Shown: positions 7,622 to 44,554 of the stretch, piece by piece
Numbering within the stretch: position 1 is the first letter of the stretch
How the letters are laid out: each line of letters opens with the position of its first letter
IMG/VR virus record: IMGVR_UViG_3300009678_000059
Location: 1 to 64,000 of that record
Source of the DNA: a virus
Taxonomy: Duplodnaviria; Caudoviricetes
DNA length: 64,000 nt
Reading direction: 5' to 3' (one strand)
Made by a program: the position numbers and the translations under genes
The notes under the pieces: generated by a model
What the model saw: only the letters and a program-made list of their open reading frames with translations
The model's database searches: none
What the model was told of the DNA's origin: nothing

Positions 7622-7714
7622 TATATTTGCCACATCGAATGCAAGCGATACAACAATTTAATAAAATTCCCCCTTTGAGTGCCTTGCATCACTTTTAGGG
7701 GGTTTTTTGTATTT
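7622..7714 (+). promoter_or_regulatory. Kissing-loop leader copy 1 (promoter plus two hairpins with complementary loops)
   Basis: TATATTTG; ATCG-AATGCAAG-CGAT; CCCCCT..AGTG-CCTTGCAT-CACT..AGGGGG-TTTTTT; ATG at 7715. Confidence 0.85.
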
Positions 7715-8482
7715 ATGAAAAGAGGTTTTGTAAAAAAGGGCGATATTATAGATAGGACAGGTGAGAAATTCATCACAAATGAGGGGTATGAGGTCGAGAT
7801 AGTTCAGTATTTTGGGGTTTATGATTGCACTATTAGGTTTAGTGACGGAACAATTATCTGTAACATGAATTTCGGAAATATAAAGAAGGGTACGGTTAAA
7901 AACCCTAATCACAAATCAGTTCAAGGAATTGGATACTTTGGCATAGGTGAGTATAAAGCACATGCTGGAAATAGTGAAAACACTACAGTTTACAATGTAT
8001 GGAGAAACATGATTATTAGATGTTATAATAGCAAAGCACAATTAAAACAACCAGCATACATCGGCTGCTCAGTTCACCATGATTGGCATTGTTTTCAAAA
8101 TTATGCTAAATGGTATTATGAAAACAAAACAGAAGACTGGTATGTGGATAAAGATATTTTATTTAAGGGTAATAAGGTTTATTCTCCTGAAACGTGCTGC
8201 TTTGTTCCTAATGAAATTAATGTCCTTTTTACAAACAGTAGAAAATCAAGAGGTGAGTTTCCTGTAGGGGTGCAAAAATACAGTCGTAAATTTAAAGTGG
8301 CACTAAGTATAAATGGAAAGCATGTATATCTAGGGTTATTTAGCACTATAGAAGAAGCGTTTCAAATATACAAAACTACCAAAGAATCACATATCAAGGA
8401 AGTAGCTAATTTATGGAGGCCTAGGATTATGCCAAAAGTTTATGAAGCTATGATTAATTATGAAGTTGAAATCACAGATTAA
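7715..8482 (+). CDS. Free-standing HNH-type homing endonuclease with AP2-like C-terminal domain
   Basis: VWRNMIIRCY...GCSVHHDWHCFQNYAKW...VDKDIL...YSPETCCFVP and YLGLFSTIEEAFQIYK; paralog of 36436..37182. Start set at the ATG after the leader. Confidence 0.85.
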   Translation: MKRGFVKKGDIIDRTGEKFITNEGYEVEIVQYFGVYDCTIRFSDGTIICNMNFGNIKKGTVKNPNHKSVQGIGYFGIGEYKAHAGNSENTTVYNVWRNMIIRCYNSKAQLKQPAYIGCSVHHDWHCFQNYAKWYYENKTEDWYVDKDILFKGNKVYSPETCCFVPNEINVLFTNSRKSRGEFPVGVQKYSRKFKVALSINGKHVYLGLFSTIEEAFQIYKTTKESHIKEVANLWRPRIMPKVYEAMINYEVEITD

Positions 8483-8491
8483 ATAAAAAAG

Positions 8492-8518
8492 AAAAGCCAC
8501 TCAAATCGAGTGGCTTTT
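8492..8518. terminator. Bidirectional intrinsic terminator
   Basis: AAAAGCCACTC-AAATC-GAGTGGCTTTT between convergent genes. Confidence 0.85.
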
Positions 8519-8536
8519 ACTTTACAATGTGTGTTT

Positions 8537-8821
8537 CTACACTGAGCAAACTAAATCGTTGTAGTAAAGTGTCTTGTACTCCACACCTCCAATTGACAAA
8601 GGAGATGTCTTATACGAGTCATATAGAACGAAATCTCCTTCTTTAATAGTGTGAATTTCATCTACAGGACAATCAACTCCGAGAGAGATAATTTGACCTT
8701 TTTTGTATTTTTCATTTTTATCTACAATTCCGGATTTATCGAAGCCAAACGATGTTTCGTTCTTGTTCTCTACCTCCTGAATTATAACGATATGGTTTAG
8801 AGCTTGCATTTTAGTTCCCAT
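8537..8821 (-). CDS. groES: Co-chaperonin GroES
   Basis: QALNHIVII...ETSFG...KGQIISLG...IKEGDFVLY; adjacent to groEL. Confidence 0.85.
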   Translation of the reverse strand: MGTKMQALNHIVIIQEVENKNETSFGFDKSGIVDKNEKYKKGQIISLGVDCPVDEIHTIKEGDFVLYDSYKTSPLSIGGVEYKTLYYNDLVCSV

Positions 8822-10388
8822 GTGAATGTGTGTTTTTAGTTCGGTTAGTCAAACAGTGGTTAGTCATCAATAATGTATTGCTCGCTGAACATGCATTGAT
8901 TAAAGCATGTTTAATAGCCTTAGTTGAATCCAATATTCCAGAAGCTATCATATCCACCTGTTTGAAGTTCTTTACATCGTAACCGATCGGATATTCAGCA
9001 GAATTTATGAAATCTTTCACGTCTGCATTTGACAATATTCTGTTAAGGGGCGCTACAACTGCAATATTACAAACCGGATCCAAGTCAAGTCTTGCTGCAT
9101 TGTAAAGAGCAACTCCTCCGCCTGCAACAACACCTTCTTCTCTTGCTGACCTTACAGCACAAACGGCGTCCTCTATTCTGTCGATACGCTCTTGTAACTC
9201 ACTCTCTATAATTGCACCAACCTTAATGATGGAGATTCCTCCTGATATTTTCGAGATCCTGTCCTTGATGTATTTTTTTTCAAGTTCAGTTTTGGCGACT
9301 TTCAGCTGTTCTTTAAGTTCGTCGATTTTGCTGTTTGCGGCGATGTCGATTTCCTCATTTTCCAAAGGCACGATGATGGTGTCTGTTTTACCTACGATAA
9401 TTGACTTACATGTTCCAAGAAACTGAGCTTCACGGCCAACGAACATATCTCCTGATAAAGACGACAGGAATTGGGTTCCGCACAACATGGCTAAATCTGA
9501 CATAAAATCCCTGCGTTTATTCCCAAATGAAGGGGAATTTACAAGGACGATTGGCAACTGTTTCTCGATTACGTTTCTGATGATTACATCACGGATACCG
9601 TAAGAGGCTGAATCTGTCCAGTCTGCCACGATAACAAGTTGGCGCTGGTTCTGCATTGCGAATTTGATAAACGGCAAAACCTGAACGTCGAATGACTTGA
9701 ATACGATATTAGAACATACGATTAACGGGTTGTCGCTGAATTCGGTAGTACGGTCAGCAAAGTTATTGATAAGCAAATCACTTGCGTAACCGCCTTCCAA
9801 TAGGGTTCCGTCTATGAAATCCAGGTGAGTTTCGTGGTCATTGCTTCTCAGATGCGAAACAGCCCCGTTTTCGCCAGCCTTAATAAAGGCGTCAGATACG
9901 ATTTTGGCAAGTTCTTCTTCGCCATTGGCAGATGTTAAAGCTACGTTATAAATATCCTCGTCGGTAAGTTTTTGTGAGATTTCGTCAAGGTAGGCAACGA
10001 TTTTGTCGCGTGAGTTTTCGATTTCGTGTTTGATGTCGATAGCCGATTTCCCTGCTTTTAAGGCTTTAAGAGATTCGGCGAAAAGTGCCTGAAGCAGTAC
10101 GATAGTTGAAGTGGTTGCGTCACCGGCAAGGTCTACTGTACGTTGGGAAGCCTCTTTTGCAACCTTACAAGCCATGTTCTCCACAGCATCGTCAAGATTG
10201 ATGTTCTGAAGCGTCTTGTAGCCGTCTTTTGTAGGTTCCGGCATACCATATACAGATTCTATAAGAACTGTCCTTCCGCGGTATCCCATGGTACTGGAAA
10301 CAATATCAGCAAGCTGGTCTATACCTGCTTTCAGTTTTTCTTTGGCTTCAATTCCGGACGTGATGTCCTTTAAAATTTGATCGTTCAT
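8811..10388 (-). CDS. groEL: Chaperonin GroEL (no GGM tail)
   Basis: STMGYRGRTV, PTKDGYK, AGDATTSTIVL, PSFGNKR, RISKISGGISIIKVGA, GVVAGGGVAL and GILDSTK motifs. Confidence 0.96.
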   Translation of the reverse strand: MNDQILKDITSGIEAKEKLKAGIDQLADIVSSTMGYRGRTVLIESVYGMPEPTKDGYKTLQNINLDDAVENMACKVAKEASQRTVDLAGDATTSTIVLLQALFAESLKALKAGKSAIDIKHEIENSRDKIVAYLDEISQKLTDEDIYNVALTSANGEEELAKIVSDAFIKAGENGAVSHLRSNDHETHLDFIDGTLLEGGYASDLLINNFADRTTEFSDNPLIVCSNIVFKSFDVQVLPFIKFAMQNQRQLVIVADWTDSASYGIRDVIIRNVIEKQLPIVLVNSPSFGNKRRDFMSDLAMLCGTQFLSSLSGDMFVGREAQFLGTCKSIIVGKTDTIIVPLENEEIDIAANSKIDELKEQLKVAKTELEKKYIKDRISKISGGISIIKVGAIIESELQERIDRIEDAVCAVRSAREEGVVAGGGVALYNAARLDLDPVCNIAVVAPLNRILSNADVKDFINSAEYPIGYDVKNFKQVDMIASGILDSTKAIKHALINACSASNTLLMTNHCLTNRTKNTHSHGN

Positions 10389-10417
10389 ATTAATATAGTG
10401 AATTTATATTTATAGCC

Positions 10418-10481
10418 CAAAGATATTAATATTTTTTTCATAGTCAACGCCTTACACTATAAGTAAAAAATATTACTTTTG
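10418..10481. promoter_or_regulatory. Divergent promoter pair (groEL leftward; fibre genes rightward)
   Basis: TATCTTTG on - at 10418-10425; TACTTTTG on + at 10474-10481. Confidence 0.7.
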
Positions 10482-10809: not shown

Positions 10810-10813
10810 GTCC

Positions 10814-12439
10814 ATGACTAAAATATCAAATTACGAACTTGACGAAACAATTTCAGGTAGCGACAGGGTAACAGGAACAGACGGAGCTACGGGACAGACT
10901 AAGAACTACCTTGTTTCTGAATTATCTACATATATATCAGATCAGGTTGAATCTGGATCTCAGGGAGAGACAGGACCTGCGGGGCCGACAGGACCGCAAG
11001 GATCAGTAGGTCCACAAGGGCCAACAGGAACAACAGGTCCGCAAGGAGTAGCCGGAACAACAGGTGCTGCTACAGTAGGACCACAGGGTATTCAAGGACC
11101 GGCAGGTCCAGTGGGCCCGGTAGGTTTAACATGGAAAGGTACTTGGAGTGCTGCTACAGCTTACATTTTAAATGATGCGGTGGGTTACAGCGGAGCTTCT
11201 TACTATAGAATTATTGCAGGAACAACAGCTACGGCTCCTAATATAGACACTACAAACTGGGCTTTGCTTGCTTCACAAGGAGCAGTAGGACCACAGGGGC
11301 CAACAGGAGCTACTGGACCAACAGGATCTGCAGGAACGCAAGGAATACAAGGAACTACAGGGGCAACCGGATCACAAGGGCTTACAGGACCTGCGGGACC
11401 AACAGGGCCGCAAGGACCACAAGGTATCCAAGGGATTCAGGGGCCGGCAGGAACTGTATCGATTACTACCGGCGCTGTATTGGCGGTCACTCCTCCGGCG
11501 ACAGTTACCCTGGGTTTTACACATAACACGGTGTCTACTTCAGCAGCAGAAAGGGCTGTTACATTGCCATTAGGTTTTACGGCGGGACAAGAAATTATTG
11601 TAATGGCTAGTAATAATGCCTACGATTTTAATGTATTGCCGCCGGTAGGAGACACCATTTCTCGCATAGGAGTTTCTGCAGGTGTCTCAAGTATGCCTGT
11701 AAAAGCTAATGAAAATTACAGGTTTACAAAGCTAAGCGGAACTACCTGGAAAGCAGAGTCAATTGGCGCTTCGTTATCTCAGGTGCTTGGTGTTGGATCT
11801 GCCGCCACTAACAATTCAGGGAGAACTTTAGATTTAGGAGATAGTTCAATCCTTGTTCAAGGCCCTTCCGGACACAGTGTAACGATATTAGAAAGCACAA
11901 TAGGTTTATTTAGTCCGGTATCAGGAGATGAGCTAACTATAAACACAGGAAGTATTGACTTCGTTAAAGGAGGGAACTCAGCTATTACAATATCTGCTGT
12001 CAATGGTACAACTCCAAGAAACATTCTTCTTCCTGACGCGAGTGGAACTGTAGCTTTGACTTCTGACATACCTACAGTAACTTCCGGAACATGGGCAGCT
12101 TCGTTTACACCTGTTCTCAATGTAGCCTCTACTTCCTACTTTAGTGTAGCTTATCAAAAAACAGGAAATATTGTATGTGCTACAATTGGATTTTTGGTAA
12201 CTGTTACCGCAGCTAATACAGCCACAACGCTTACAATATCACTTCCGGTAAACAGATCAGGATCATCACCGATACAGGTTGGATCTGGAACTTTAAAAAG
12301 GAACAACTCAGCGGCTGAATTCATACCTGTATATGTTGAATCAGCGGCTACGTCTACGGTTAAAGTTCAGTTTTACCCGACGCAAAACACTGATTACTAC
12401 ATAGGGTCAATTACCTTCCAATACGGAATCAACGTATAA
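10814..12439 (+). CDS. Collagen-like fibre protein
   Basis: Two long Gly-X-Y tracts separated by a WKGTWS...Y..NDAVGY domain; beta-rich C-terminal head. Confidence 0.88.
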
Positions 12440-12975: not shown

Positions 12976-13557
12976 ATGGAATTACACGAAAAGTACAAGA
13001 CTCTTTTTAACTCATACCACGTAAACACGCCTTTGAGGATTGCTCATATTATGGCGCAACTGGAAGCTGAATCCGGATTAAAACCTATTGAGGAAAATTT
13101 GAAATACTCTCCTAAGAGATTGGGAGAGGTTTTTCCTAAGTATTTCCCGAATGCGGAGGTGGCGAATTTCTATGCCAAGTCTCCGGCAATGATAGGTGCA
13201 AGGATTTACGCTAACAGAATGGGCAACGGTGACGAAAAATCCATGGACGGGTACAAATTCAGAGGCAGAGGTTTCATACAGACCACAGGAAAGAACAATT
13301 ACCTGGTACTATCTAAAGACACCAGGATAGATTTTGTAACCAATCCGGACATGTTGCTGCAGGAAGCAAACGCAATGATTGCTGCCTTACATTACTGGAG
13401 CAAAGGAAAACTGAACACTCATGCTGACAATGACGATGTTGACGCGATAAGCGACATAATCAATATCGGGCATCATACGGCTAAGGTAGGCGACGCAAAC
13501 GGCTTCAAACACAGGAAAGAACTGCTTGGCAAATGGAAAACTAAACTTGGAATCTAA
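12976..13557 (+). CDS. Glycoside hydrolase family 19 endolysin
   Basis: AHIMAQLEAESG, E-N-L-x-YS, YANRMGNG, DGYKFRGRGFIQTTGKNNY. Confidence 0.93.
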   Translation: MELHEKYKTLFNSYHVNTPLRIAHIMAQLEAESGLKPIEENLKYSPKRLGEVFPKYFPNAEVANFYAKSPAMIGARIYANRMGNGDEKSMDGYKFRGRGFIQTTGKNNYLVLSKDTRIDFVTNPDMLLQEANAMIAALHYWSKGKLNTHADNDDVDAISDIINIGHHTAKVGDANGFKHRKELLGKWKTKLGI

Positions 13558-17263: not shown

Positions 17264-17746
17264 ATGAAAACTACATTAACAGGAAGAATAGAGAGGATTA
17301 AATTGTTTATAGATAATGGATATACAGCAGACCTGGAAACAGGTTTGGTGTATAGTCCAAAACCAGGTACAGATGAGATGATAAAAAGAGGGTGTATTAA
17401 TAATAAAGGTTATATGGCGCTAACAACAAAACTTAATGGTAAAAGCATCAAGTTGCAAGCGCATCATTTTATATACTATTTAGCCACTGGAAAAGTGGTA
17501 GACGAATTAGATCACATCGACAGAACAAGACATCACAATGGAGTAGCAAATTTAAGGGAAGTAACCCATAGTGAAAATCAGCAAAACAAAGATGAAGCTA
17601 GAGGGTATTACTATGTAAAAAAGATTGATAAGTACAGAGTTAAATTAATGACTAACGGTGTAAGAATGGATGTTGGGTATTTTAAAACCGAAGAAGAAGC
17701 TAAGCAGGCATATTTAATAGCTAAAAATAAATATCATATACAATGA
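17264..17746 (+). CDS. HNH homing endonuclease with AP2 domain
   Basis: AHHFIY...LDHIDR..HHNGVANLREVTHSENQQN and VGYFKTEEEAKQAYL. Confidence 0.92.
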   Translation: MKTTLTGRIERIKLFIDNGYTADLETGLVYSPKPGTDEMIKRGCINNKGYMALTTKLNGKSIKLQAHHFIYYLATGKVVDELDHIDRTRHHNGVANLREVTHSENQQNKDEARGYYYVKKIDKYRVKLMTNGVRMDVGYFKTEEEAKQAYLIAKNKYHIQ

Positions 17747-24141: not shown

Positions 24142-24143
24142 AC

Positions 24144-24179
24144 AAAAAACCCGCTTCTTACGAGGCGGGTTTTTCTTTT
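24144..24179. terminator. Bidirectional terminator
   Basis: AAAAAACCCGC-TTCTTACGAG-GCGGGTTTTT. Confidence 0.85.
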
Positions 24180-24196
24180 CCTGAACACTTCAAATA

Positions 24197-24526
24197 TTAG
24201 TTGTGGATAATATTGAAGTGAACTTTTGCTACCGCATTCAATGCGACAGTCGGGTGTACGTTTGTGATTGTTACAGAAAACGATCCTCTTGCCTGATCCT
24301 GAATTCTAACAATAGGCGCCCCAGCACCTGCGTACTGTAAAGCTACTTGGATTTCAGTAATCCTTTGGCATTTTGTGTTGTTGATTGTAAATGTTGTTGA
24401 TGCTCCTGCTGCCGCCGTTGTAAGCGCGAAAGTAGTGATAACTCCTTCGTAAGCGTTTGCTCGAACAGCTGTGGATACAGAAGTAATCTGTGTAACATTT
24501 TTAATCCTGCCGTTGTTAAGTGCCAT
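24197..24526 (-). CDS. Small beta-rich protein, probable virion decoration or fibre
   Basis: Ala/Thr/Val-rich, 109 aa, inverted relative to the structural module. Confidence 0.6.
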   Translation of the reverse strand: MALNNGRIKNVTQITSVSTAVRANAYEGVITTFALTTAAAGASTTFTINNTKCQRITEIQVALQYAGAGAPIVRIQDQARGSFSVTITNVHPTVALNAVAKVHFNIIHN

Positions 24527-24576
24527 GTGTTTATGGTTTTAGTGTGTTAATATTATGTAAAAGTAATACTTTTTAT

Positions 24577-25236
24577 TTATATATGCTTCCATAGCTTACG
24601 ACTTAATATGCAGCTTATCGTATCTCTATCGACTCCATATATCTCTGCTATTTCTCGTTGAAACATATTTTTTCCTATAGCCCTGATTTCAAGCACCTGT
24701 TCTTCTGTTAATTTCGCTCCACCATGCTTTGATCCTTTTTGCGGTTTTAGCAATCCAGTATCGCATGCGTGTTGTATGTTTTCAGCAGTTGTACACCATT
24801 CTAAATTGTCCTTACGATTATCCCACTTGATTCCGTTTTTATGATTGACAAATGGTTTATTTTCAGGATTCGGTATAAAGTGTAAAGCAACTAAACGGTG
24901 TACCATAAATCTTTCTTTTTCTGAATCTTTATGTAGAGCCACAGATAAATAACCGTCTTCCATTTTTGAAAGATGCAGCCTTCGAGGAAATACGTAAATA
25001 TAGCTTTTCACGCCTCCTGCATCACTAATGTCATAAATGCCTTCATATCCGACAATCCTTGTCCATTCTTCTCCCTCGACATCAGAGGGCGGAATTGTTG
25101 TGTACTTAGCAAGAGATTTAGCTTTACACTTCTTACATTTTGCACGAAATCTAATGATTCCATTTTTAAGTTTATCCATTGGAAATAGCTCCAATGGTTT
25201 TATCTCGTTGCAAGTATTGCATTTTTTTATCTCCAT
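24577..25236 (-). CDS. Zn-ribbon/NUMOD4-HNH homing endonuclease
   Basis: CxxC...CxxC, EEW..IVGYEG.Y, HRLVALHFIPNPENKPFVNHKNG...NLEWCT, C-terminal HTH; start at the ATG after the leader. Confidence 0.92.
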   Translation of the reverse strand: MEIKKCNTCNEIKPLELFPMDKLKNGIIRFRAKCKKCKAKSLAKYTTIPPSDVEGEEWTRIVGYEGIYDISDAGGVKSYIYVFPRRLHLSKMEDGYLSVALHKDSEKERFMVHRLVALHFIPNPENKPFVNHKNGIKWDNRKDNLEWCTTAENIQHACDTGLLKPQKGSKHGGAKLTEEQVLEIRAIGKNMFQREIAEIYGVDRDTISCILSRKLWKHI

Positions 25237-25335
25237 AAAATAGAAAAACCCGTAAATCAAGAGGTCGTAGTCTCTATCCTTACGGGAATTCAAATGATGT
25301 TTTTATTTCGGCTACGACTCCGAACTGCAAATATA
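25237..25335 (-). promoter_or_regulatory. Kissing-loop leader copy 2
   Basis: Read on -: TATATTTG; TTCGG-AGTCGTAG-CCGAA; CCCGTAA..AGAG-ACTACGAC-CTCT..TTACGGG-TTTTT; ATG. Confidence 0.85.
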
Positions 25336-25350
25336 CTCACAATTATTCGT

Positions 25351-25358
25351 TATTTTTG
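25351..25358 (+). promoter_or_regulatory. -7 promoter element of the terminase gene
   Basis: TATTTTTG, 15 bp from the divergent leader promoter. Confidence 0.65.
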
Positions 25359-25390
25359 TCTTAAATGTAATTTGAATTAAATCTAAATAA

Positions 25391-33207: not shown

Positions 33208-33238
33208 AACTATTTGTTTTTCAAGTAGTTGTAAAATT

Positions 33239-33267
33239 AAACCCACTCAATTCGAGTGGGTTTTTTT
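33239..33267. terminator. Bidirectional terminator
   Basis: AAACCCACTC-AATTC-GAGTGGGTTTTTTT. Confidence 0.85.
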
Positions 33268-33931
33268 ATATATGCGTCCATGTTTTTCTTTTTAAAATGT
33301 TGCATACAGTTGCTTTTGATACGCCAAATCTTCCAGCTATTTCGCCAAGAGAAATCGAGTATCCTATTTCACGTATATCCAACACCTCGCTTTCAGTAAC
33401 TTTAGAAGCTCCGTTTTTTGATCCACTGGGCGGTTTTCTCAAACCCATTTCCCACGAATGCTGTATATTTTCTTCATTAGTGCACCATTCTAAATTCCAA
33501 TCATTATTATTTGTCTTGTCTCCGTCCTTATGGTTTACTTCGGGTAAATTAAGTGGATTTGGGACAAAAGCCATTGCAACTGCTCTGTGTATTAAAATAA
33601 ACTTATGCTTCTTATTATATTTTATTGAGGTAGCTAGGTATCCGTTTTCGGTCAATTGAGGAACCCTTAATCTATTTGTTGGAAATCCAGCAACCGATAT
33701 TCTTCTAATTCGGCCTGTATTGCTAGTTACAAAAGTATCCTCCATTCCTACACTTGGAAGCCAAATCTCTCCTGGTAAATCAGCGATTCCAACCACCCCT
33801 TTCCTCGTAGTATTTCTTTCTACGTCGCACTTTTTGCAAGCGGCTATTCTTTTATCTGAGCCTCTCCTTCTGAAATGAAACAAGAATAAAGGTTTCTCAA
33901 CACCACACTTTGTGCAGATTTTCGTTTCCAT
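33266..33931 (-). CDS. Zn-ribbon-HNH homing endonuclease
   Basis: Paralog of 24577..25236; IHRAVAMAFVPNPLNLPEVNHKDGDKTNN..NLEWCT. Confidence 0.92.
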   Translation of the reverse strand: METKICTKCGVEKPLFLFHFRRRGSDKRIAACKKCDVERNTTRKGVVGIADLPGEIWLPSVGMEDTFVTSNTGRIRRISVAGFPTNRLRVPQLTENGYLATSIKYNKKHKFILIHRAVAMAFVPNPLNLPEVNHKDGDKTNNNDWNLEWCTNEENIQHSWEMGLRKPPSGSKNGASKVTESEVLDIREIGYSISLGEIAGRFGVSKATVCNILKRKTWTHI

Positions 33932-33934
33932 ATT

Positions 33935-34078
33935 TTACGAATTCAAGGCTTTTGCGATTTCGTTGTACGCATTCATTTGCTCAATATATTCTTCATCTTT
34001 TACTTTTCCTTCCCTACGAGCGATTATTAAATCTCTAATAGCTACTCTAATTGTTTCGATTACTTCTTCTTTGTTCAT
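33935..34078 (-). CDS. Small hypothetical protein (47 aa)
   Basis: Hand-translated MNKEEVIETIRVAIRDLIIARREGKVKDEEYIEQMNAYNEIAKALNS. Confidence 0.55.
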   Translation of the reverse strand: MNKEEVIETIRVAIRDLIIARREGKVKDEEYIEQMNAYNEIAKALNS

Positions 34079-34093
34079 GGTTTTCTGTTTTTA

Positions 34094-34483
34094 TTAAATT
34101 CCTATTTGTTTTTTTGCTGATTCGGTTAGGGTTATGCCTGTACCTACTAAATCTTCAATCTTATAACAGCCTTTTAGTATTTTCCAATCCTCAAATCTAA
34201 CAGTCCAAACTGCCCAATCCTCAAACAAAACCTTTTCTTTGGCTTGTTGATAAATCGGTTGTTCTTTTTCCCATCTATCCCATTCCTCATCTGTTGCAGG
34301 AGATAATGGTTTACCTAACAAAACATTTCCCTCATCATCTACGCAAACAAACATTTCAAGTTTTAACGGCTTTTTTAGGAATAATGCGTAGTTTATTATG
34401 TTGATTGAAAAAGCGTTTGCTTCTCCTTTGCATTTTAGCCTTTGCTCTAAAACAAAATCGGTCATTGATATTAATTTATTCAT
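34094..34483 (-). CDS. Hypothetical protein of a recurrent Flavobacteria phage family
   Basis: KLISMTDFVLEQ...NYALFLKKPLKLEMFV...Y.QAKEKVLFE pattern. Confidence 0.75.
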   Translation of the reverse strand: MNKLISMTDFVLEQRLKCKGEANAFSINIINYALFLKKPLKLEMFVCVDDEGNVLLGKPLSPATDEEWDRWEKEQPIYQQAKEKVLFEDWAVWTVRFEDWKILKGCYKIEDLVGTGITLTESAKKQIGI

Positions 34484-34727
34484 CTCTCAGTAGTTTTTGC
34501 AGTTCTCGTCTCCTATCAACTAATTTCTCATCGTTATTACCGCATAGTTGCAGCTCATATAGTTTTCCTTCGATTTGGTCAAGTTCCTGTTGTAGTTTTT
34601 CTTTCATATATTTTTCTTTCATGTTTGGTTTATATTCTTTGATACATTTTAGACAGTAGGCGAATATTCCGTTCTCGCTGTTTTTTAATGATGGTTTTGG
34701 GATTTTGCAGGCGCAGGTTTCTTTCAT
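34476..34727 (-). CDS. Hypothetical protein with Zn-finger-like Cys residues
   Basis: CxC...CxxC plus coiled coil. Confidence 0.6.
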   Translation of the reverse strand: MKETCACKIPKPSLKNSENGIFAYCLKCIKEYKPNMKEKYMKEKLQQELDQIEGKLYELQLCGNNDEKLVDRRRELQKLLRDE

Positions 34728-34750
34728 GGCTCTTTCTCGATTGTATTTGG

Positions 34751-34999
34751 TTAATAGTTATTTATATCGAATGTGATGTCTCGGCCTTTCCAACTTTCAT
34801 CGACTTCTGCGGTTGAAGCCCAAATTAAATCCGGATAAGTTGATTCAAATACTCTTACTGCGACGCTTCTGTTTTGCTCTTTGGTTTCTATTATTTTATA
34901 GCCTAATAAATCTCCATTATGGCGTGTGTACAATACTTTGTAGTAGTATCGCTTAGACAGTTTTGCTACCCATTGACTGAATGTTAGTTTTGGTTCCAT
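34751..34999 (-). CDS. Hypothetical protein
   Basis: 82-aa ORF coupled to the upstream ORF. Confidence 0.65.
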   Translation of the reverse strand: MEPKLTFSQWVAKLSKRYYYKVLYTRHNGDLLGYKIIETKEQNRSVAVRVFESTYPDLIWASTAEVDESWKGRDITFDINNY

Positions 35000-35229
35000 T
35001 ATTTTTCTCTGATTATTTCAGCGTTAAAATACATGGCTAAATTCTCAACTTCCTGATTGAAGTCTGCTTCGTTTCTCCTTGTGTTACATAAGACAATAGT
35101 TCGTTCTTCACCCGACTTCCTTATTAAGCAATAAGCGAGAGCGTCTTTATCGTAGCTGTCTACGCCTATGAAGAATTCTTCTTTTATTTGCCCTAGTCCT
35201 GATTTGTCGATGTCAAATATTGTTTTCAT
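34999..35229 (-). CDS. Hypothetical protein, first gene behind leader copy 3
   Basis: Start moved to ATG 35229 because the upstream in-frame ATG lies inside the leader hairpin. Confidence 0.65.
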   Translation of the reverse strand: MKTIFDIDKSGLGQIKEEFFIGVDSYDKDALAYCLIRKSGEERTIVLCNTRRNEADFNQEVENLAMYFNAEIIREK

Positions 35230-35355
35230 AATTTCTGTATAAAAAGAAAAGCCAACTATAGCTCTCACACTATAATTGACTTTCTTGATTAGTCGTTATT
35301 CCTATTGACTAATAATTTCTTAAAGGCTAGTGAGAGATAGCTTGGGACAAATGTA
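35230..35355 (-). promoter_or_regulatory. Kissing-loop leader copy 3 (with an extra internal hairpin)
   Basis: Read on -: TACATTTG; GCTA-TCTCTCAC-TAGC; ATTAGTC..GACTAAT; AGTCAATTATAG-TGTGAGAG-CTATAGTTGGCT-TTTCTTTTT. Confidence 0.8.
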
Positions 35356-35428
35356 ACAAGAACTTTTGGTGAAATCCAATCGTATAGAGAAATAATATTT
35401 AACAATACTTGGTGATAGATTTTTCTTA

Positions 35429-35436
35429 TATCTTTG
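35429..35436 (+). promoter_or_regulatory. -7 promoter element
   Basis: TATCTTTG upstream of ATG 35462. Confidence 0.7.
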
Positions 35437-35461
35437 TTCCTATAATCTAATTTAAATCAAA

Positions 35462-36439
35462 ATGTCAGAAAACAAAAAAGCGCCTCTTTTTGGAAAGAAG
35501 GTTGAAACGGAAAAAGAAACAGTTATCCCGGAAGTAAAAGTTACGGAAACTCCGATGATTACAATGTCGATAGATGAGTTGAATGCTCTTATTGACTCAA
35601 AACTGAATGCTGCCAAAACTCCGGAAGTAAAGCAGGAGAGAGTAGTTTCAAAGGAGGAGAAGACTATCAGAAACCACATGTCAGATGACATCCCTGAATT
35701 ACGAGATTTCCCTGTGAGAGAGAGAATTTATGTCTTATGTGACGGAAGTAAACCGGAAGCTCGTGAAATCAAGAGTCGCCATAAGCCTGGAAGTCCGTTA
35801 CAATATTTCAATAGAGAAACTAACGAAAGTCACGCATTATTCTTCTCAATGACTCAGGCATCGTTTTACAAAACTGAACACAAAGGAGACTCGAAGGTTG
35901 ACCACATCTTTATGAAAGACGGTATGCTTACAACCTATCCGGAAGATGTAAAATTACAATCGTTCCTTGAAATACATCCCGATAATGAAAAAAATGGTGG
36001 TTCGTTATTTATGGAATATTTGCCAGGTAAAGAGGCTGAGAATGATTTGGAAAGCGAAGACCTTTTGTTTGCCGCACAAAAACTAGCAAGAGAACTTTCT
36101 TTTATCCGTCAAGATGCTGTAGCAAGGCTTTTATGTAAAAACTACAAAGAGTCATGGGAACCCGCAGAAATGAAATTAGCTTTGTTTAACGAAGTAAAAA
36201 GATCTGCTAAGGAGTTTATGAAGTTGGCGAACGATCCTAGATTAGAGATCAAAGGAATTGCACGTACTGCTGTGCAAAGAGGTTTTATCGAGTATAAAGG
36301 TTACAAGTTTTGGAATGACCAAGGTGAAGTGATTGTAGATGTGCCACGTAATTCAAACGAATATGAAGTATTGGCTGATTATTTCCTAAGCAACCAAGGT
36401 CGTAATTACTATGAATACTTGGTTAACTCAATCAATTAG
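35462..36439 (+). CDS. Conserved virion-module protein downstream of the capsid gene
   Basis: 325 aa with IFMKDGML...KLQSFLEIHPDN motif; position matches crAss-like head-tail genes. Confidence 0.7.
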   Translation: MSENKKAPLFGKKVETEKETVIPEVKVTETPMITMSIDELNALIDSKLNAAKTPEVKQERVVSKEEKTIRNHMSDDIPELRDFPVRERIYVLCDGSKPEAREIKSRHKPGSPLQYFNRETNESHALFFSMTQASFYKTEHKGDSKVDHIFMKDGMLTTYPEDVKLQSFLEIHPDNEKNGGSLFMEYLPGKEAENDLESEDLLFAAQKLARELSFIRQDAVARLLCKNYKESWEPAEMKLALFNEVKRSAKEFMKLANDPRLEIKGIARTAVQRGFIEYKGYKFWNDQGEVIVDVPRNSNEYEVLADYFLSNQGRNYYEYLVNSIN

Positions 36440-37182
36440 TCAGTAATCTCAACTTTATAATTCATCAAAGCGTTGTAGCACTCCGGTGTTATGACGCTTT
36501 TCCATTTCTCTGCCAACTCTTTAATGTAGCTTTCTTTAGCTATTTTATACACTTGAAATGCTTCTTCAATCGTTCTGAACAAGCCTAAGTAAATACGCAT
36601 ATCACCCTTGTTCAGTCTAGCTTGAAATCTATTCTTTTTCTTAACAATTCCAATGGGTAAGTCGGTTTTTTTATCACGTTTGGTTAATGATGTATTTATT
36701 TCGTGAGGAACAAAAACACATGTTTCAGGAGAGTATATTTTATTCCATTTCACAATTATATCTTTGTCTAGGTCACAATCTTCTATTTGGTTTTCCTCAT
36801 ACCATTTTGCAAATACTTGATAGTTATGCCATCTTTCATCTACAGAGCAACCAATGTATGATGGTCTTTTTTTAAGAGATTTTTCGCTATAACATCTTTG
36901 AATCATACTTTGCCAAGTACTATATGATTTTGTGGTCTCACCGTTAACCTTAGTTCTGTATTTACCTTCGCCAAGGTATCCCATTCCGAAAACTGACCTA
37001 TGAAACACATTTCGGACTACTCCTCTTTTTAGATTTGCAATTTGCATTCCAGTCATTGTGTGACCACCTATATCAAACTTAATAGTGCAATCAAGTGCGC
37101 CAAAGAATTTAACTATCTCAATCCAATATCCTTCATTGGTTAAAAACCTTTCTCCTGTCCTGTCTATAAATTTTCCTTGCAT
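36436..37182 (-). CDS. HNH-type homing endonuclease with AP2-like domain
   Basis: Paralog of 7715..8482; WQSMIQRCY...CSVDERWHNYQVFAKW...LDKDII...YSPETCVFVP. Confidence 0.88.
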   Translation of the reverse strand: MQGKFIDRTGERFLTNEGYWIEIVKFFGALDCTIKFDIGGHTMTGMQIANLKRGVVRNVFHRSVFGMGYLGEGKYRTKVNGETTKSYSTWQSMIQRCYSEKSLKKRPSYIGCSVDERWHNYQVFAKWYEENQIEDCDLDKDIIVKWNKIYSPETCVFVPHEINTSLTKRDKKTDLPIGIVKKKNRFQARLNKGDMRIYLGLFRTIEEAFQVYKIAKESYIKELAEKWKSVITPECYNALMNYKVEITD

Positions 37183-37277
37183 AAAATAAAAATACCCTCA
37201 AAAAAGGGTAGGACTCCTTAGATGAGGGTATAGTATAATGTTTTTGACAGCCGTCCTACTTGCTGAGAACAAATATA
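37183..37277 (-). promoter_or_regulatory. Kissing-loop leader copy 4
   Basis: Read on -: TATATTTG; CAGC-AAGTAGGACG-GCTG; ATACCCTCA..AAGG-AGTCCTAC-CCTT..TGAGGGTAT-TTTT; ATG. Confidence 0.85.
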
Positions 37278-37302
37278 CGAAGTTACTAAGCAAAAAAAAC
37301 AT

Positions 37303-37310
37303 TAATTTTG
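37303..37310 (+). promoter_or_regulatory. -7 promoter element of the tail operon
   Basis: TAATTTTG upstream of ATG 37330. Confidence 0.65.
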
Positions 37311-37329
37311 TTAAAACAAACACAACAAT

Positions 37330-41900: not shown

Positions 41901-43366
41901 CAGAACCAATAGAGCAGCTTAATGCCAATTTCTTTGAGACACCGAATGTTTACACTATCACTGCCGGAGCTCATGAATTTGTGGAACACAGCCTTACCGA
42001 CACGTTTAACTGTTTTGCTTTTGGCAACGGGGTTGAGAGTTATAAGATAAAAGACGAGCTAAATACAAAGAGTTTTTCCATAGACTCGAACCCGTCTAAC
42101 GTCAATACTGACGGCTATAAAAGGATTGTGAGATCTGCCGACATCACATATTCTGAGGTTTACAACTCTAATTCCAACGTAAACAGGCTTAACGAATTCA
42201 ATTTGTCACTTGCTAATTACAAGGACGATGTGGACAAGACTTTTGGCCCGATTTACAGACTGAAGGGCGAGAACACCAACCTTGAAGTTTACCAGGAAGA
42301 CAAGGACTCCATCGTGTACTACGGGAAAGATTTGCTTTACAATGCCGACGGAACCACGAACTTAACAGGAGTGCCGCAGGTATTGGGGACACAGAAGGCA
42401 TACGAAGGAGAGTGGGGGATTTCCCAGCATCCTGACAGTTTTGACTTTTACGGTTATGACTCATACCACACGGACGTTAAGAGAGGATCTGTAATCAAGA
42501 AGTCGAACAACGGGCTGTTTGATATTTCGACTCAGGGAATGAAGACATACTTCAGAAGACTGTTTAAGGAAAACACAATTCAGCATATCAACGGGAAGTA
42601 CGACCAGCTGAACAAGGTGTATATCCTGAACATCAAGTACAATGACGGCAACGAAGACCTATACAGAACATGGGTTTATTCTGACGAGAACAACGGATGG
42701 TTGACTACTCAAACTTTCAATCCGGAAGACATGATACGTGTGAACGGGAACTTTTACTCATTTGAAAAAGGAGAGGTTTACAAGCACAACAACACTACTG
42801 ACTTCAATACTTTTTACGGTATTTTTGCATACAGTGTAGCGTCGTTCAATATGAGTCATGAGCCAAGCAGTAGAAAGGTTTTTAAGACCATAGAGGTACA
42901 AGGAAACACAGCTCCGACTGTTGTATTAAGGACAGACATGGATTCAGGAAACGTGCAGCCGGATTACTTTGAGAAAAAGGAAAACGTGTACCATTCGTAC
43001 ATCAGGATGAACAACGAGACTATGGATACCTCGCTTTTGAGCTATCAGGGAATCGGGACAGCTACTGTGAATAGCTTTGACCTGGAATTTTCCTTCGACC
43101 TGGACAGCAATATATCTGTGGGCGACAAAATCCGTAATGTAGCCATGGAACTTGTAGGTGTGATAACTTCTAAAACAAGGAATTCACTTACCTTAACCGC
43201 CATGGACAATATAATTTCGGGTGATTATGTGGTTTGCTGTAAGCCGGAATCTGCAGAACAGCAGGGTCTTTTGGGTTACACAATGAATGTAACAGCTACC
43301 TTTGGCGACACTGTACAGCAGGAGATATTCGAGATAGCCTCGGAAGTAAACAAATCATATTTGTAG
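38948..43366 (+). CDS. Tail stabilisation/muzzle protein (beta-propeller type)
   Basis: ~1470 aa; NNFTKGTVQNDVDER, FAYRYKYSDG..SA.S, NFDNVPLSAKAQ..GSRIAYANY, FGNGVES, N.LNEFN. Confidence 0.8.
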   Translation: MRIANNFTKGTVQNDVDERFTDGALVGEPVNIEIFTGVGSDAGVLKNIPGNIKMSNYTEQFFLSPSAKCIGAGKNESEEKLYVFIKDTAFDFVIEYNSVTNTSARVLQSAASSGVLNFNADERITCVDIFIDAVTNDTIIAWSGDSNPPRIVNVTTAKTWAVGGFTNDEISVMKPSPIFAPVTHLTTSTESILNNFIEDKFLSFAYRYKYSDGYYSAPSSWSVVAFTPSDFKLDYQTYDNLGMVNLSNAVDVSFNVGPRDVVQVDLLFRESDHTTVYVVQQFVKSDEVWEDETTQTFQFSKSKIYTVLPESQYFRNFDNVPLSAKAQTVIGSRIAYANYVEGYDITDKIDFDVAVTSTEVFSFNQEGIENTNIHIGNWDHTVDFEELTFTEREYVMAPVADQMNYTTNEITMSYANLNPAAVNKFGRFAATVTPDSRYDSVNYSIEFRNGATILQTSGPFAGTQTASYDTPLNALYTVKAYVIPSTDVLIYDCEMKYSLGDLVFLGGGEWFIQDWYKAYFQVSCINTTTGPPSFINAFAITDRMGVDLTGFEFVTGKQLRVNMVLQSSLVKEHRPDATFYYNITEDYVDLADFMTNSTFQSEFEDTFTQVFKNNYISNEGVFVSMTDFSITYTGDTLKVSMPVVVYNVTEPSGITENKDEFFLVSRGRVTSTDTNAYASMHSNRDYETCLFYMDEQGRKTTSLVCDNNTVYIPADKSDLINRLSVTVNNDPPSWAKYYKFGIKQVKKQYETIYGNVVYEDGVFRWIKLEGENKNKVQEGDQLIVKTDMSGPLDQLVKVKVLEIKEQAANFITGNLNDLGDDISEPAGLYFKIKQGTFDANVTQESFMQFTETVKRRYASTTFVTTDPIFGIMDPAFVPYAVAAGTTIRFFLNMKAYGSIAFDHKFEITKEAEIDYLSVEDWFNAEIAANADYLEFVDENFTTAGFTIDGDRFQVKPNRDGTASRDIITEVTFDINFSRGTLIFETEPIEQLNANFFETPNVYTITAGAHEFVEHSLTDTFNCFAFGNGVESYKIKDELNTKSFSIDSNPSNVNTDGYKRIVRSADITYSEVYNSNSNVNRLNEFNLSLANYKDDVDKTFGPIYRLKGENTNLEVYQEDKDSIVYYGKDLLYNADGTTNLTGVPQVLGTQKAYEGEWGISQHPDSFDFYGYDSYHTDVKRGSVIKKSNNGLFDISTQGMKTYFRRLFKENTIQHINGKYDQLNKVYILNIKYNDGNEDLYRTWVYSDENNGWLTTQTFNPEDMIRVNGNFYSFEKGEVYKHNNTTDFNTFYGIFAYSVASFNMSHEPSSRKVFKTIEVQGNTAPTVVLRTDMDSGNVQPDYFEKKENVYHSYIRMNNETMDTSLLSYQGIGTATVNSFDLEFSFDLDSNISVGDKIRNVAMELVGVITSKTRNSLTLTAMDNIISGDYVVCCKPESAEQQGLLGYTMNVTATFGDTVQQEIFEIASEVNKSYL

Positions 43367-43371
43367 AATTG

Positions 43372-43406
43372 AAAAACCCCGTCATAATTGGCGGGGTTTC
43401 TTTTTT
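43372..43406. terminator. Bidirectional terminator
   Basis: AAAAACCCCG-TCATAATTGG-CGGGGTTTCTTTTTT. Confidence 0.8.
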
Positions 43407-43803
43407 ATAATCTTTTGAAATATTGGCCGAAGCCCTTGTCTCCCTCGGAAAATCCTGATTTCAGTAGTTTGTTGGCTATTATCGCACTTGAAGTAGGCAC
43501 GAATAGCATTTTGAAATATCTTCCCTTCGCATAATCACATAATCCAACAATCAGTGCATCTAAACCACCTTTCCTGTCTTTTACATCAGGATTTGACATG
43601 AAGTATGTTGGTATTGCAGTTGCCGAATTTGTTTCCCAAACCCAAACCAAGTATACCGGAACTTCGTTTTTATAAGTTACCAAGCATTTGTCTGGCAACA
43701 AGGTGAAATCAATCATATCGAATTTATGCTGTCCGCTCCAAAAGTAAAACGTGTTTACAAAGTCAATCTTTTTTCTAACTTTTGTTTCGAATTTATCAAT
43801 CAT
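43405..43803 (-). CDS. GNAT-fold-like protein (T7 gp13-like position in the virion module)
   Basis: VPVYLVWVWETNSATA...SNPD...LIVGL..AK...LLKSGF resembles acetyltransferase-like virion genes. Confidence 0.55.
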   Translation of the reverse strand: MIDKFETKVRKKIDFVNTFYFWSGQHKFDMIDFTLLPDKCLVTYKNEVPVYLVWVWETNSATAIPTYFMSNPDVKDRKGGLDALIVGLCDYAKGRYFKMLFVPTSSAIIANKLLKSGFSEGDKGFGQYFKRL

Positions 43804-43806
43804 AGA

Positions 43807-44454
43807 TTATTTTTCTTTTAATATGGTTTTCACTAATTCTCGAAATGATTTTCTGCAACCATTGAATAGATGAATGTTGGCTAAAGCTATTTGATACATT
43901 GAATTAGCCAAATCTTCATTTGTAGTCCTTATTAATCTCAACTTAACACCATTACGCTGAATGTTAGACGCCCATTTTTTTTCTTCTCTATCCCAGCTAA
44001 CACCGGTATATCGTGATGTTTTGTTTTTTATGTCCTTGGACGTGTTTTTTCTATGCGTTATTGATTGTAGATTAACTGCTCTATTGTCTAATTTGATATT
44101 GTTTTTATGATCTACAACTTCCTCCCTACCACTTACTACGTGTCCATTAAAAACTGCTGCGACTAATTGATGTGTGAAATGAGTTGTTTTAACATCTTCG
44201 TTAGAGGTTCGGAAACATAGGTATTCATTTTTGCTGTAGTTTTGTTTTAGGATTTTACCTTCATAAAAAGCGTGTCCTCCCCATCTTTTGTGGCGAACCA
44301 TTCTGTCTAATGATTTAGCCCTGCCTAGGTCGCTTACTTTATACAGTCCGATATGATTAGGAATATCTCTCCATAATTCAATCTTCCAAAGCATATCTAT
44401 TTCGCAGAAATAAGTAATGTCGGATAAATCTAAGTTTTCGTAATAATATGTCAT
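43807..44454 (-). CDS. NUMOD4-HNH-AP2 homing endonuclease
   Basis: ELWRDIPNHIGLYKVSDLGR.KS, HQLVAAVF, VVDHKNNIKLDNRAVNLQ, SRYTGVSW. Confidence 0.92.
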   Translation of the reverse strand: MTYYYENLDLSDITYFCEIDMLWKIELWRDIPNHIGLYKVSDLGRAKSLDRMVRHKRWGGHAFYEGKILKQNYSKNEYLCFRTSNEDVKTTHFTHQLVAAVFNGHVVSGREEVVDHKNNIKLDNRAVNLQSITHRKNTSKDIKNKTSRYTGVSWDREEKKWASNIQRNGVKLRLIRTTNEDLANSMYQIALANIHLFNGCRKSFRELVKTILKEK

Positions 44455-44554
44455 AAAAAAATAAAAACCCGCACGTCAAGAAGTGGAAGGTTCTATCGAT
44501 GCGGGAATTCAATAATGTTTTCAATCAGGCTTCCACTCCTGTATTGCAAATATA
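44455..44554 (-). promoter_or_regulatory. Kissing-loop leader copy 5
   Basis: Read on -: TATATTTG; CAGG-AGTGGAAG-CCTG; CCCGCA..AGAA-CCTTCCAC-TTCT..TGCGGG-TTTTT; ATG. Confidence 0.85.

Follow-up and report, generated by a model that had tools for sequence, protein, structure and literature searches.

Intrinsic terminators at the 5' ends of T4 mobE and segF limit transcript levels; they are present only together with the endonuclease and are thought to limit its expression (PMC2790892; PMC2988022). Structured leaders with embedded late promoters restrain expression of the homing endonucleases I-TevI/II/III, segB and Aeh1 mobE, where hairpins bury the Shine-Dalgarno sequence or the start codon and thus act on translation (PMC2988022). 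Control by complementary segments is known from P4 CI/seqA/seqC, P1/P7 c4 and Gifsy-1 IsrK, whose segments share a single promoter and regulate how a downstream operon (in P4, the replication operon) is terminated or translated, with covarying short sequences setting specificity (PMC4825925). Two kissing hairpins linked to a choice between termination and read-through are found in guanidine-IV (mepA) and corrinoid L5-L13. The pRNA of phi29 also carries two mutually complementary loops in one RNA, and their pairing covaries among related phages; these loops pair between molecules (4 bp) to form the packaging ring, and each genome has one such gene.

We analysed a folded RNA of ~90 bases, the kissing-loop leader, which is present in five copies in a 64,000-nt stretch of DNA from a Bacteroidota phage (the window). 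Like mobE and segF, it has a putative intrinsic terminator right where a free-standing endonuclease unit begins. T4 mobE, however, is promoterless and has a plain hairpin (9 bp, 4-nt loop) inside the coding region, whereas the cassettes here carry their own promoter and the candidate terminator is a long two-tier hairpin upstream of the ATG, its loop paired to a 5' hairpin. In contrast to the hairpins that sequester ribosome-binding sites, the fold leaves the start codon outside, a Shine-Dalgarno sequence is absent and a U-tract follows the hairpin. In guanidine-IV and corrinoid RNAs the loops are conserved and either make up a ligand pocket or respond to one, whereas those of the leader vary freely; the guanidine-IV kiss competes with the terminator, whereas here the kissing partner is the terminator hairpin, and no Rfam match was found. 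The RNAs of the P4 CI group are processed or terminated and act in trans on linear sites, whereas here two hairpin loops ~45 nt apart probably pair within one molecule. Compared with phi29 pRNA, the loop pairing is longer (7-9 bp), there are several copies per genome and they stand before genes.

Architecture of the five copies

The five elements, with their common layout, were found where and as the preliminary description had reported them. In each copy a TAnnTTTG motif is followed by hairpin P1 (4-5 bp), an A-rich linker of about 20 nt, the long hairpin P2, a U-tract and the ATG. P1 begins 3-6 nt past the motif, at or adjoining the expected start site. In P2 the lower stem is GC-rich and is separated by an internal loop from an upper stem that is weak (4 bp) and capped by an 8-nt loop; the U-tract directly abuts P2. 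As had been observed, the two loops are perfect 7-nt complements in 5/5 copies and all the 7-mers differ. The ATG lies 9-14 nt beyond P2 in the five window copies, within an unpaired U-rich tract, so that a translational switch occluding the start codon, one of the mechanisms proposed earlier, is not evident.

7622..7717, + strand: leader c1 (fold z = -3.05; covariance model R1, 96 bits; pair counts)
7622-7629, +: c1 promoter motif TAnnTTTG
7634-7649, +: c1 P1, loop 7638-7645 AAUGCAAG; loop pair AUGCAAG/CUUGCAU
7650-7668, +: c1 linker
7669-7702, +: c1 P2, putative terminator hairpin, loop 7682-7689 CCUUGCAU
7703-7714, +: c1 U-tract; ATG 7715
25234..25335, - strand: leader c2; loop pair GUCGUAG/CUACGAC
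25335-25328, -: c2 promoter motif
25324-25307, -: c2 P1, loop 25319-25312 AGUCGUAG
25306-25287, -: c2 linker
25286-25249, -: c2 P2, loop 25271-25264 ACUACGAC; tandem G.A internal loop
25248-25237, -: c2 U-tract; ATG 25236
35227..35355, - strand: leader c3 (variant); loop pair CUCUCAC/GUGAGAG
35355-35348, -: c3 promoter motif TACATTTG
35341-35326, -: c3 P1, loop UCUCUCAC
35313-35288, -: c3 extra hairpin
35286-35244, -: c3 P2, loop 35269-35262 UGUGAGAG; then U-rich spacer and ATG 35229
37180..37277, - strand: leader c4 (R1, 102.6 bits); loop pair GUAGGAC/GUCCUAC
37277-37270, -: c4 promoter motif
37265-37248, -: c4 P1, 10-nt loop AAGUAGGACG
37247-37232, -: c4 linker
37231-37192, -: c4 P2, loop 37215-37208 AGUCCUAC
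37191-37183, -: c4 U-tract; ATG 37182
44452..44554, - strand: leader c5 (fold z = -3.31); loop pair GUGGAAG/CUUCCAC
44554-44547, -: c5 promoter motif
44541-44526, -: c5 P1, loop 44537-44530 AGUGGAAG
44525-44506, -: c5 linker
44505-44468, -: c5 P2, loop 44490-44483 CCUUCCAC; tandem G.A internal loop
44467-44455, -: c5 U-tract; ATG 44454

Covariance model R1 misses c3 because of its inserted hairpin; the same three-hairpin layout occurs in relatives of the L008a/L040 type. The c4 linker is 16 nt long up to the extended P2 stem, or 19 nt if counted to the CCC arm. A simple terminator scanner called an alternative short hairpin in c4, at 37210-37193.

Covariation, strand and stability

Without an anchor, chance alone often yields two weak hairpins with complementary 7-mers (~30 matches per shuffle of the window). 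The full layout of promoter, P1 at the transcript start and U-tract terminator is found at exactly five sites in the 74-kb genome, and promoter-proximal terminators of this kind occur genome-wide only at the five leaders. Cognate P1/P2 loops pair over 6-9 nt (mean 7.5), non-cognate loops over a mean of 3.0. An alignment of eight sequences (A9) was evaluated against 500 shuffles and against slid pairings. All seven loop-loop pairs were 100% paired, six of them with double (compensatory) changes; none of the 500 shuffles matched the loop-loop scores, and the slid controls fell to 27-56% paired. The P1, P2-upper and P2-lower stems covary too. Three ortholog pairs differ by a single compensated loop-loop change: UCGGGCAGG/CCUGCCCGA versus UCAGGCAGG/CCUGCCUGA, GGCUCGAC/GUCGAGCC versus GGCUAGAC/GUCUAGCC, and GGUCUCA/UGAGACC versus GGUCUGA/UCAGACC. 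In one copy the loop-loop helix is kept through a G-U pair, and the structure is therefore RNA on the sense strand. Fold z-scores were -2.5 to -3.3 for the sense and -1.2 to -1.8 for the antisense strand, the sense being better in 5/5 copies.

Folding energies were -1.2 to -4.4 kcal/mol for P1, 0 to -3.3 for the P2 upper hairpin and -7.7 to -11.0 for the loop-loop duplex. Because the two hairpins are weak relative to the duplex, the kiss is the predicted main stabiliser of the upper fold. Even in the absence of the kiss, the complete P2 hairpin is stable (-12.9 to -18.2 kcal/mol).

Downstream genes and the wider family

As described before, four copies sit directly on an HNH gene and the fifth heads an operon that includes one:

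7715..8482, + strand: HNH-type homing endonuclease gene behind c1, 255 aa, phrog_953
24197..25236, -: c2 cassette, NUMOD4+HNH_3 endonuclease 24577-25236 and 109-aa ORF 24197-24526 (phrog_18251)
33266..35229, -: c3 operon, four small ORFs (34999-35229, 34751-34999, 34476-34727, 34094-34483), then HNH_3/NUMOD4 endonuclease 33266-33931
36436..37182, -: HNH-type homing endonuclease gene behind c4, 248 aa, phrog_953
43405..44454, -: c5 cassette, NUMOD4+HNH_3 endonuclease 43807-44454 and 132-aa ORF 43405-43803 (phrog_17252)

The c1 and c4 genes are paralogs (51% identity) assigned to phrog_953 'HNH endonuclease'; a Pfam search gave no match for either. The c2 to c5 cassettes are clean insertions relative to three related phages, G001-G003. 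The entire c2 (24142-25390), c3 (33208-35461) and c4 (36440-37329) cassettes are missing in all three, and the c5 segment (43795/43853-44653) lacks a counterpart in G002 and G003. The leader moves together with its cassette. Four cassettes in the window lie antisense within the late structural operon and one is convergent with a chaperonin gene. The co-oriented endonuclease genes at 17264, 20267, 21318 and 56686 had been reported to lack the leader, and this was borne out: an unfiltered covariance-model search matched none of them, and none has enough room upstream for a leader. Such genes can make use of the transcription of their neighbours.

Eleven IMG/VR records of related phages and two Flavobacterium phages in culture together yielded about 30 loci, among which 23 different loop pairs occur. 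A search of Rfam 15 returned no matching family, in line with the earlier impression that the element has no name; similarities to isrK (15 bits versus 50) and c4-a1b1 (9 versus 47) were at chance level, and no published description of the family was found in the literature. The claim that the leader always heads homing-endonuclease units holds for the window and fails for the family: two relatives have replication-initiator/NinG operons behind it (G006 -27616; G007 +1474), and the copy at G002 +20455 has no ORF for 3.5 kb downstream.

In 24/24 folded instances, and in the further ones inspected, the base of the stem is GC-rich and leads directly into a U-rich tract, with four or more U in a row inside roughly its first 10 nt; in nearly every copy the run is 4-8 U long. 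The ATG follows P2 at 9-24 nt across instances, in unpaired A/U-rich sequence. The linker is 19-21 nt in six of the seven short-loop members measured and only ~10 nt in some long-loop relatives. The tandem G.A internal loop of P2 is conserved in at least seven copies and an ACAUUAU linker motif is common to several; there are few invariant nucleotides other than those in the promoter and U-tract. The genome was searched for other targets of the loop 7-mers and none was convincing.

Codes within the short-loop subfamily are 1-3 compensated steps apart, and the c2 code GUCGUAG recurs in another phage before a different HEG family with all stems changed. Pairwise identity is 0.62 in loop-loop columns, 0.62 in unpaired columns and 0.47 in stems. 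The proposal that the loop code keeps the copies orthogonal is unsupported, because variability in the loop pairs does not exceed that of unpaired positions; the differences are explained by ordinary drift with compensation.

Possible functions of the leader

Since P2, placed between promoter and ATG, shows all the sequence features that mark an intrinsic terminator, a cis attenuator is the most economical reading. We give about an even chance to a portable promoter-plus-attenuator module in which the kissing loops lock the terminator fold. Each element would be the 5' leader of a self-contained transcription unit, in which a host-type Bacteroidota promoter (TAnnTTTG) would start the RNA with P1 almost at its 5' end, and the 7-bp pairing between the P1 and P2 loops would lock two marginally stable hairpins into one compact pseudoknotted fold. 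From the sequence we infer that P2 is an intrinsic terminator 9-14 nt before the start codon, that the loops kiss within one molecule and that the kiss sets termination efficiency. Termination would release most transcripts as RNAs of ~85-95 nt, leaving the downstream gene to be encoded only by those that read through. Since P2 is stable without the kiss, the kiss could affect termination only by kinetic or steric means. Our guess is that it pre-organises the weak top of P2 and so favours termination; the guanidine-IV kissing loop favours read-through (PMC11611296), and the direction could therefore be either.

The ~10-nt linkers of some long-loop relatives strain a fully stacked intramolecular model, and mutually complementary loops allow head-to-tail pairing between molecules as readily as within one. 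It is conceivable, though unlikely, that the terminated ~85-95 nt RNA is itself the product and acts in trans on its own unit's transcripts, whether nascent or read-through, the P1 loop of one molecule engaging the P2 loop of another and the reverse, in a copy-specific feedback like that of P4 CI RNA with seqA/seqC, P1/P7 c4 RNA or Gifsy-1 IsrK. Leader-derived RNAs that act on their own transcript have precedents (PMC4825925); the G002 copy with no ORF behind it and the want of a convincing genomic target other than self would fit. However, the 19-21 nt linker of most short-loop members suggests an intramolecular geometric constraint, the codes are no more diverged than neutral positions and so give no sign of selection for specificity, and the Rfam similarities to isrK and c4-a1b1 do not exceed chance.

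We consider it improbable that the fold serves the mRNA, with the 5' hairpin in its compact pseudoknot protecting against 5'-end-dependent decay, P2 terminating poorly and the U-rich tract after P2 being an unstructured ribosome landing site, as Bacteroidota use weak or no Shine-Dalgarno pairing. The position of P1 beside the expected start site and the unpaired sequence before every ATG agree with this, and the essential replication genes behind some copies fit a stabiliser or enhancer better than a throttle. However, a GC-rich stem base abutting 4-8 U is the signature of an intrinsic terminator, not of a mere A/U-rich leader, and a stabilising hairpin needs neither a second hairpin nor a loop-loop helix. 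There is a small chance that a ligand, a phage or host protein, Mg2+ or temperature stabilises or breaks the kiss and thereby toggles termination. The order of 5' hairpin, linker, 3' hairpin, kiss and terminator resembles guanidine-IV (PMC11611296), and the tandem G.A loop or the ACAUUAU motif is a candidate binding site; yet the 23 freely varying codes leave no conserved ligand pocket, invariant nucleotides are few, no Rfam riboswitch family matches and the kissing partner is the terminator hairpin itself rather than a competitor. Least probable by far is that the element acts at the DNA level, as a cruciform or as a site recognised in recombination or by an endonuclease, or that terminators resemble one another here by chance. 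The inverted repeats exist equally in DNA and lie at the edges of mobile cassettes, but the G-U pairs of the helices are A-C mismatches on the opposite strand, the sense strand folds better in every window copy, ~30 loci all keep one orientation with respect to promoter, U-tract and ATG, and covariation goes far beyond the shuffle controls.

The kissing-loop leader is a real, conserved RNA family and, judged from its sequence, most likely doses transcription into the genes downstream. Because it also heads replication operons, a throttle for toxic nucleases cannot be its whole rationale. Where a promoter-plus-attenuator module precedes an endonuclease, low expression would hold down the toxicity of the nuclease as well as antisense or convergent transcription running into essential genes of the phage.

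Leader architecture

Five copies of the leader (c1 to c5) are present in the window.

7622-7714, + strand: leader c1
25237-25335, - strand: leader c2
35230-35355, - strand: leader c3
37183-37277, - strand: leader c4
44455-44554, - strand: leader c5

At all five places the sequence reads as the preliminary description had claimed. Each copy contains, in order, TAnnTTTG, which is the Bacteroidetes promoter consensus (PMC10309648), a 5′ hairpin (P1), an A-rich linker, a long terminator-like hairpin (P2), a U-tract and an ATG. P1 starts 3-6 nt after the promoter motif and has 4-5 bp with an 8-nt loop (10 nt in c4). P2 consists of a GC-rich lower stem, an internal loop and a 4-bp upper stem closed by an 8-nt loop, and is followed by the U-tract. 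In all five copies the ATG comes 9-14 nt after P2, within U-rich sequence that is unpaired. The minimum-free-energy fold (ViennaRNA) contains both hairpins in every copy, with z-scores of -2.5 to -3.3 on the sense strand compared with -1.2 to -1.8 on the opposite strand. The claimed complementarity of the P1 and P2 loops, here called the kiss, was also borne out: over the seven nucleotides 3′ of the first loop base it is perfectly Watson-Crick in each copy, and the five loop pairs are all different.

Between its two tiers, P2 has a symmetric internal loop, (U/C)GA(U/C) over (U/C)GA(U/C). It is kept in at least seven copies, among them four at individual loci in relatives (L010, L046, L077 and L091), and the adjoining stems vary.

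25274-25272 / 25259-25257, - strand: symmetric GA internal loop of c2
44494-44491 / 44478-44475, - strand: symmetric GA internal loop of c5

Judging from its sequence, this loop could form tandem sheared G·A pairs, and its conservation may reflect a defined bend or a protein-binding site. In c4 only, there is an alternative short terminator hairpin, UACCCUU-UUUU-GAGGGUA (window 37210-37193, - strand). Formation of this hairpin uses 3′ nucleotides of the P2 loop and would be incompatible with the kiss, a possible two-state arrangement.

Distribution in relatives and covariation

The whole virus record comprises 74,164 bp (39% G+C), of which the window is the first 64 kb. The window encodes a large terminase, a portal protein, very large virion proteins and tail fibres. 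Cultured phages related to it are limited to distant Flavobacterium podophages, in which relatives of its capsid-like protein are only ∼30% identical, and a megablast search of the INPHARED phage collection with 20 kb of the window returned no close relative. Relatives were gathered from sequence collections using the terminase protein, which yielded 11 IMG/VR contigs, and a NUMOD4-HNH endonuclease profile, which yielded 34 further loci; a bacterial scan with the homing endonuclease profile, one genome per species, gave no relative. Ten related records fetched whole (G002, G006, G007 and others) and the window's own record, 551 kb in total, were scanned for leaders using covariance models and a promoter-anchored script.

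An unanchored scan for two weak hairpins with complementary loops gave ∼30 chance finds per shuffled window. The full layout, anchored by the promoter motif and the U-tract terminator, occurs at exactly five sites in the whole genome. A covariance model built from four copies scored those four at 91-103 bits and everything else at ≤24 bits. Since the covariance model of the leader (R1) misses c3 and the long-loop relatives, and unanchored scans are swamped by chance finds, the promoter-anchored script was needed. In all, about 30 loci of the same architecture were found, with 23 different loop pairs of 6-9 bp. They fall into three subtypes: short 8-nt loops (c1, c2, c4 and c5), long loops of 10-23 nt, and a three-hairpin form (c3 and the L008a type). 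An exact-pattern scan of IMG/VR for the linker-P2 junction of c2 and c5 found nothing.

The mean pairing length is 7.5 nt for cognate loops, compared with 3.0 nt for non-cognate loops. In an alignment of eight leaders (A9), with the loops outside any model used, the loop-loop helix is 100% paired and six of its seven pairs have changed on both sides. The observed values were not reached in any of 500 shuffles, and pairing fell to 27-56% when the partner columns were slid. Covariation is also seen in P1 and in both tiers of P2. In each of three ortholog pairs, the loop-loop helices differ by a single compensated substitution; a G-U pair maintains the helix in one copy. These compensated changes and the G-U pair show that the leader is under RNA-level selection on the sense strand; a DNA-level element is disfavored. 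We also considered an extended P1/P2 duplex of 10-11 bp with G-U pairs, which can be drawn in c5, G004a, L046 and L008b. It is not a family feature because it is absent from c2 and others. At two further loci, L039 (in G010) and L088 (Polaribacter phage P12002L, NC_028924.1, ∼13090-13180), the complement of the P2 loop directly follows the promoter motif and no clear P1 stem is seen; in the P12002L copy the U-tract is missing as well.

Downstream genes and cassettes

As first described, c1, c2, c4 and c5 lie directly upstream of endonuclease genes, and c3 heads an operon of four small ORFs followed by an HNH gene. By Pfam, the c2 and c5 genes are NUMOD4+HNH_3 and the last gene behind c3 is likewise HNH_3+NUMOD4, while the c1 and c4 genes are phrog_953 paralogs (E = 1e-64 to 1e-66). 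Judged by HNH_3, NUMOD4 or AP2 domains or an HNH PHROG match, and by free-standing insertion between conserved genes, the downstream genes are homing-endonuclease-like; the cassettes are missing from related genomes. In tblastx comparisons with three related phages, the c2, c3 and c4 cassettes each fall precisely at a break in conserved structural genes, and the c5 cassette does so in two of the three comparisons. Therefore promoter, leader and endonuclease went in together as a single unit running antisense to the late operon. The c1 cassette lies behind a terminator and points toward a convergent gene for a GroEL-like chaperonin (phrog_5725, E = 4e-104; window 8811-10388, - strand). An extra ORF belonging to a function-unknown PHROG follows the endonuclease gene at c5 (43405-43803, - strand; phrog_17252) and at c2 (24197-24526, - strand; phrog_18251); both would depend on read-through of the leader because no promoter motif of their own was seen.

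The co-oriented endonuclease genes at 17264, 20267, 21318 and 56686 do lack the leader, with no room upstream and no model match. No leader was found at phrog_953 homologs in other phages (L001-L003), or at distant homologs, GC-rich or otherwise, of the NUMOD4 endonuclease gene. The proposal that the leader always heads endonuclease units held in large part: in the whole-record scans, 17 of 21 leaders sit directly on endonuclease genes, three head operons (c3, G006 -27616 and G007 +1474), and one (G002 +20455) has no downstream ORF. The G006 and G007 operons encode replication-initiator or primosomal proteins, with NinG in one of them. The link between leader and endonuclease is strong, not exclusive.

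Two leader-like RNAs in relatives are orthologs of each other with a compensated loop change.

G002:C1:20455-20580, + strand: leader-like RNA L017
G007:C1:1474-1600, + strand: leader-like RNA L077

Both are followed by ∼280 nt or more without an ORF, and the 3.5 kb behind L017 contain, on that strand, no ORF reaching 72 aa (longest 71 aa). Possible identities are stand-alone small RNAs and long 5′ UTRs of a replication operon.

Termination, kissing loops and alternative readings

In all five copies and in all relatives, a GC-rich stem abuts a run of 4-8 U on the transcribed strand. P2 is thus a putative intrinsic terminator with the defining sequence features. A simple terminator scanner called just c3 and the alternative c4 hairpin; it misses the other copies because it does not allow internal loops. 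With these features, and lying between the promoter and the start codon, P2 is most simply read as making the leader a putative promoter-proximal attenuator. In the antisense cassettes, such an attenuator would also limit transcription into the late genes. An attenuator on endonuclease units fits the T4 genes mobE and segF, whose 5′ terminators are confined to places where the endonuclease occurs (PMC2790892, PMC2988022).

The calculated energy of P1 alone is -1.2 to -4.4 kcal/mol and that of the P2 upper tier 0 to -3.3, compared with -7.7 to -11 for the loop-loop duplex. P1 and the top of P2 are marginal and the loop-loop duplex is strong, and thus the kiss would be the main stabilizer of the upper fold. 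We infer that, by pre-organizing the top of a long terminator interrupted by an internal loop, it would let the lower stem close in time. However, P2 as a whole is already stable without the kiss, and the kissing loop of the guanidine-IV riboswitch favors read-through (PMC11611296).

No Rfam family matches the leader, which the preliminary description had not assigned to a named family. Rfam 15 gave no match in the whole window at gathering thresholds, and an E-value search with c1 and c5 gave best scores of 8-20 bits against thresholds of 37-155 (E ≥0.3); isrK (15.1 bits, threshold 50) and c4-a1b1 (9.3 bits, threshold 46.7) are at chance level. In the guanidine-IV riboswitch (mepA motif), conserved loop nucleotides form a ligand-dependent kiss, the kissing hairpin competes with the terminator, and mepA/sugE-type exporters lie downstream. 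In contrast, the leader family has 23 different loop pairs, its kissing hairpin forms the upper part of the terminator, and endonuclease or replication genes follow; with the lack of an Rfam match, these differences place it outside guanidine-IV. T4-type translational hairpins bury the ribosome-binding site or start codon and have a late promoter embedded. The leader ATG lies outside P2, unpaired in five of five copies, so a control hairpin of this type is not evident. A full-text literature search on kissing loops, terminators and phage homing endonucleases found no description of the leader. The RNA family is undescribed in public sources, though its kind (structured leader plus terminator) is known.

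The preliminary description had suggested that the loop code keeps copies orthogonal, and this found no support. Pairwise identity in the loop-loop columns (0.62) equals that in unpaired columns (0.62) and exceeds that in stem columns (0.47). Short-loop codes fit GU[C/G]G[U/A][A/C]G, with c4 (GUAGGAC), c1 (AUGCAAG) and L046 (GUCGGAG) as exceptions, and most are one to three compensated steps from the nearest relative. The c2 code reappears without change in a second phage, where a phrog_953 endonuclease follows and none of the stems is the same. Orthogonality or diversifying selection on the loops was rejected for lack of support from column conservation and code recurrence.

A rival to the attenuator is that the terminated leader is a trans-acting, self-addressed small RNA, by analogy with P4 CI RNA or IsrK (PMC4825925). 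In P4 CI RNA, P1/P7 c4 and IsrK-SeqA, a processed or terminated small RNA pairs with leader targets of the same operon; our leader is not a sequence member of this group. The terminated leader would accumulate, and its loops would kiss nascent transcripts from the same promoter and alter their termination, giving each cassette or early operon private feedback with the 7-9 nt loop pair as address. We regard this as unlikely. As for targets other than the leaders themselves, each loop 7-mer occurs elsewhere in the genome only at about chance frequency. The c1 P2 loop, CCUUGCAU (window 7682-7689), is the complement of the 8 nt that open the c4 ORF, AUGCAAGG (37182-37175), and the c1 and c4 endonuclease genes are paralogs; since no other copy has such a cross-match, it is probably a coincidence. 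Two further rivals remain, namely that the leader serves as an mRNA stabilizer and ribosome landing pad, or as a ligand- or protein-responsive switch.

New in this work are the tally of genes downstream of 21 leaders, the orthogonality test, the fold energy balance and the carriers among cultured Flavobacterium phages. The last are vB_FspS_tooticki6-1 (leader at NC_048844.1, ∼11603-11691) and FCV-1, at 76 and 33 bits, respectively, with loop pair GUAGUGC/GCACUAC, and they make bench tests straightforward. The leader offers a clean natural case of a long-range loop-loop contact coupled to an intrinsic terminator, in 23 naturally compensated versions, and hence a near-ideal system for how tertiary contacts tune termination; it could also be used as a compact programmable component. 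In uncultured phage genomes, the motif flags autonomous transcription units and mobile cassettes. How phages contain free-standing homing endonucleases has been worked out in just a few T4 cases, and the leader family is a widespread, structurally defined element in Bacteroidota phages. If the self-addressed RNA reading were true, homing endonuclease cassettes would be spreading a portable autoregulator, programmable by sequence, among these phages.
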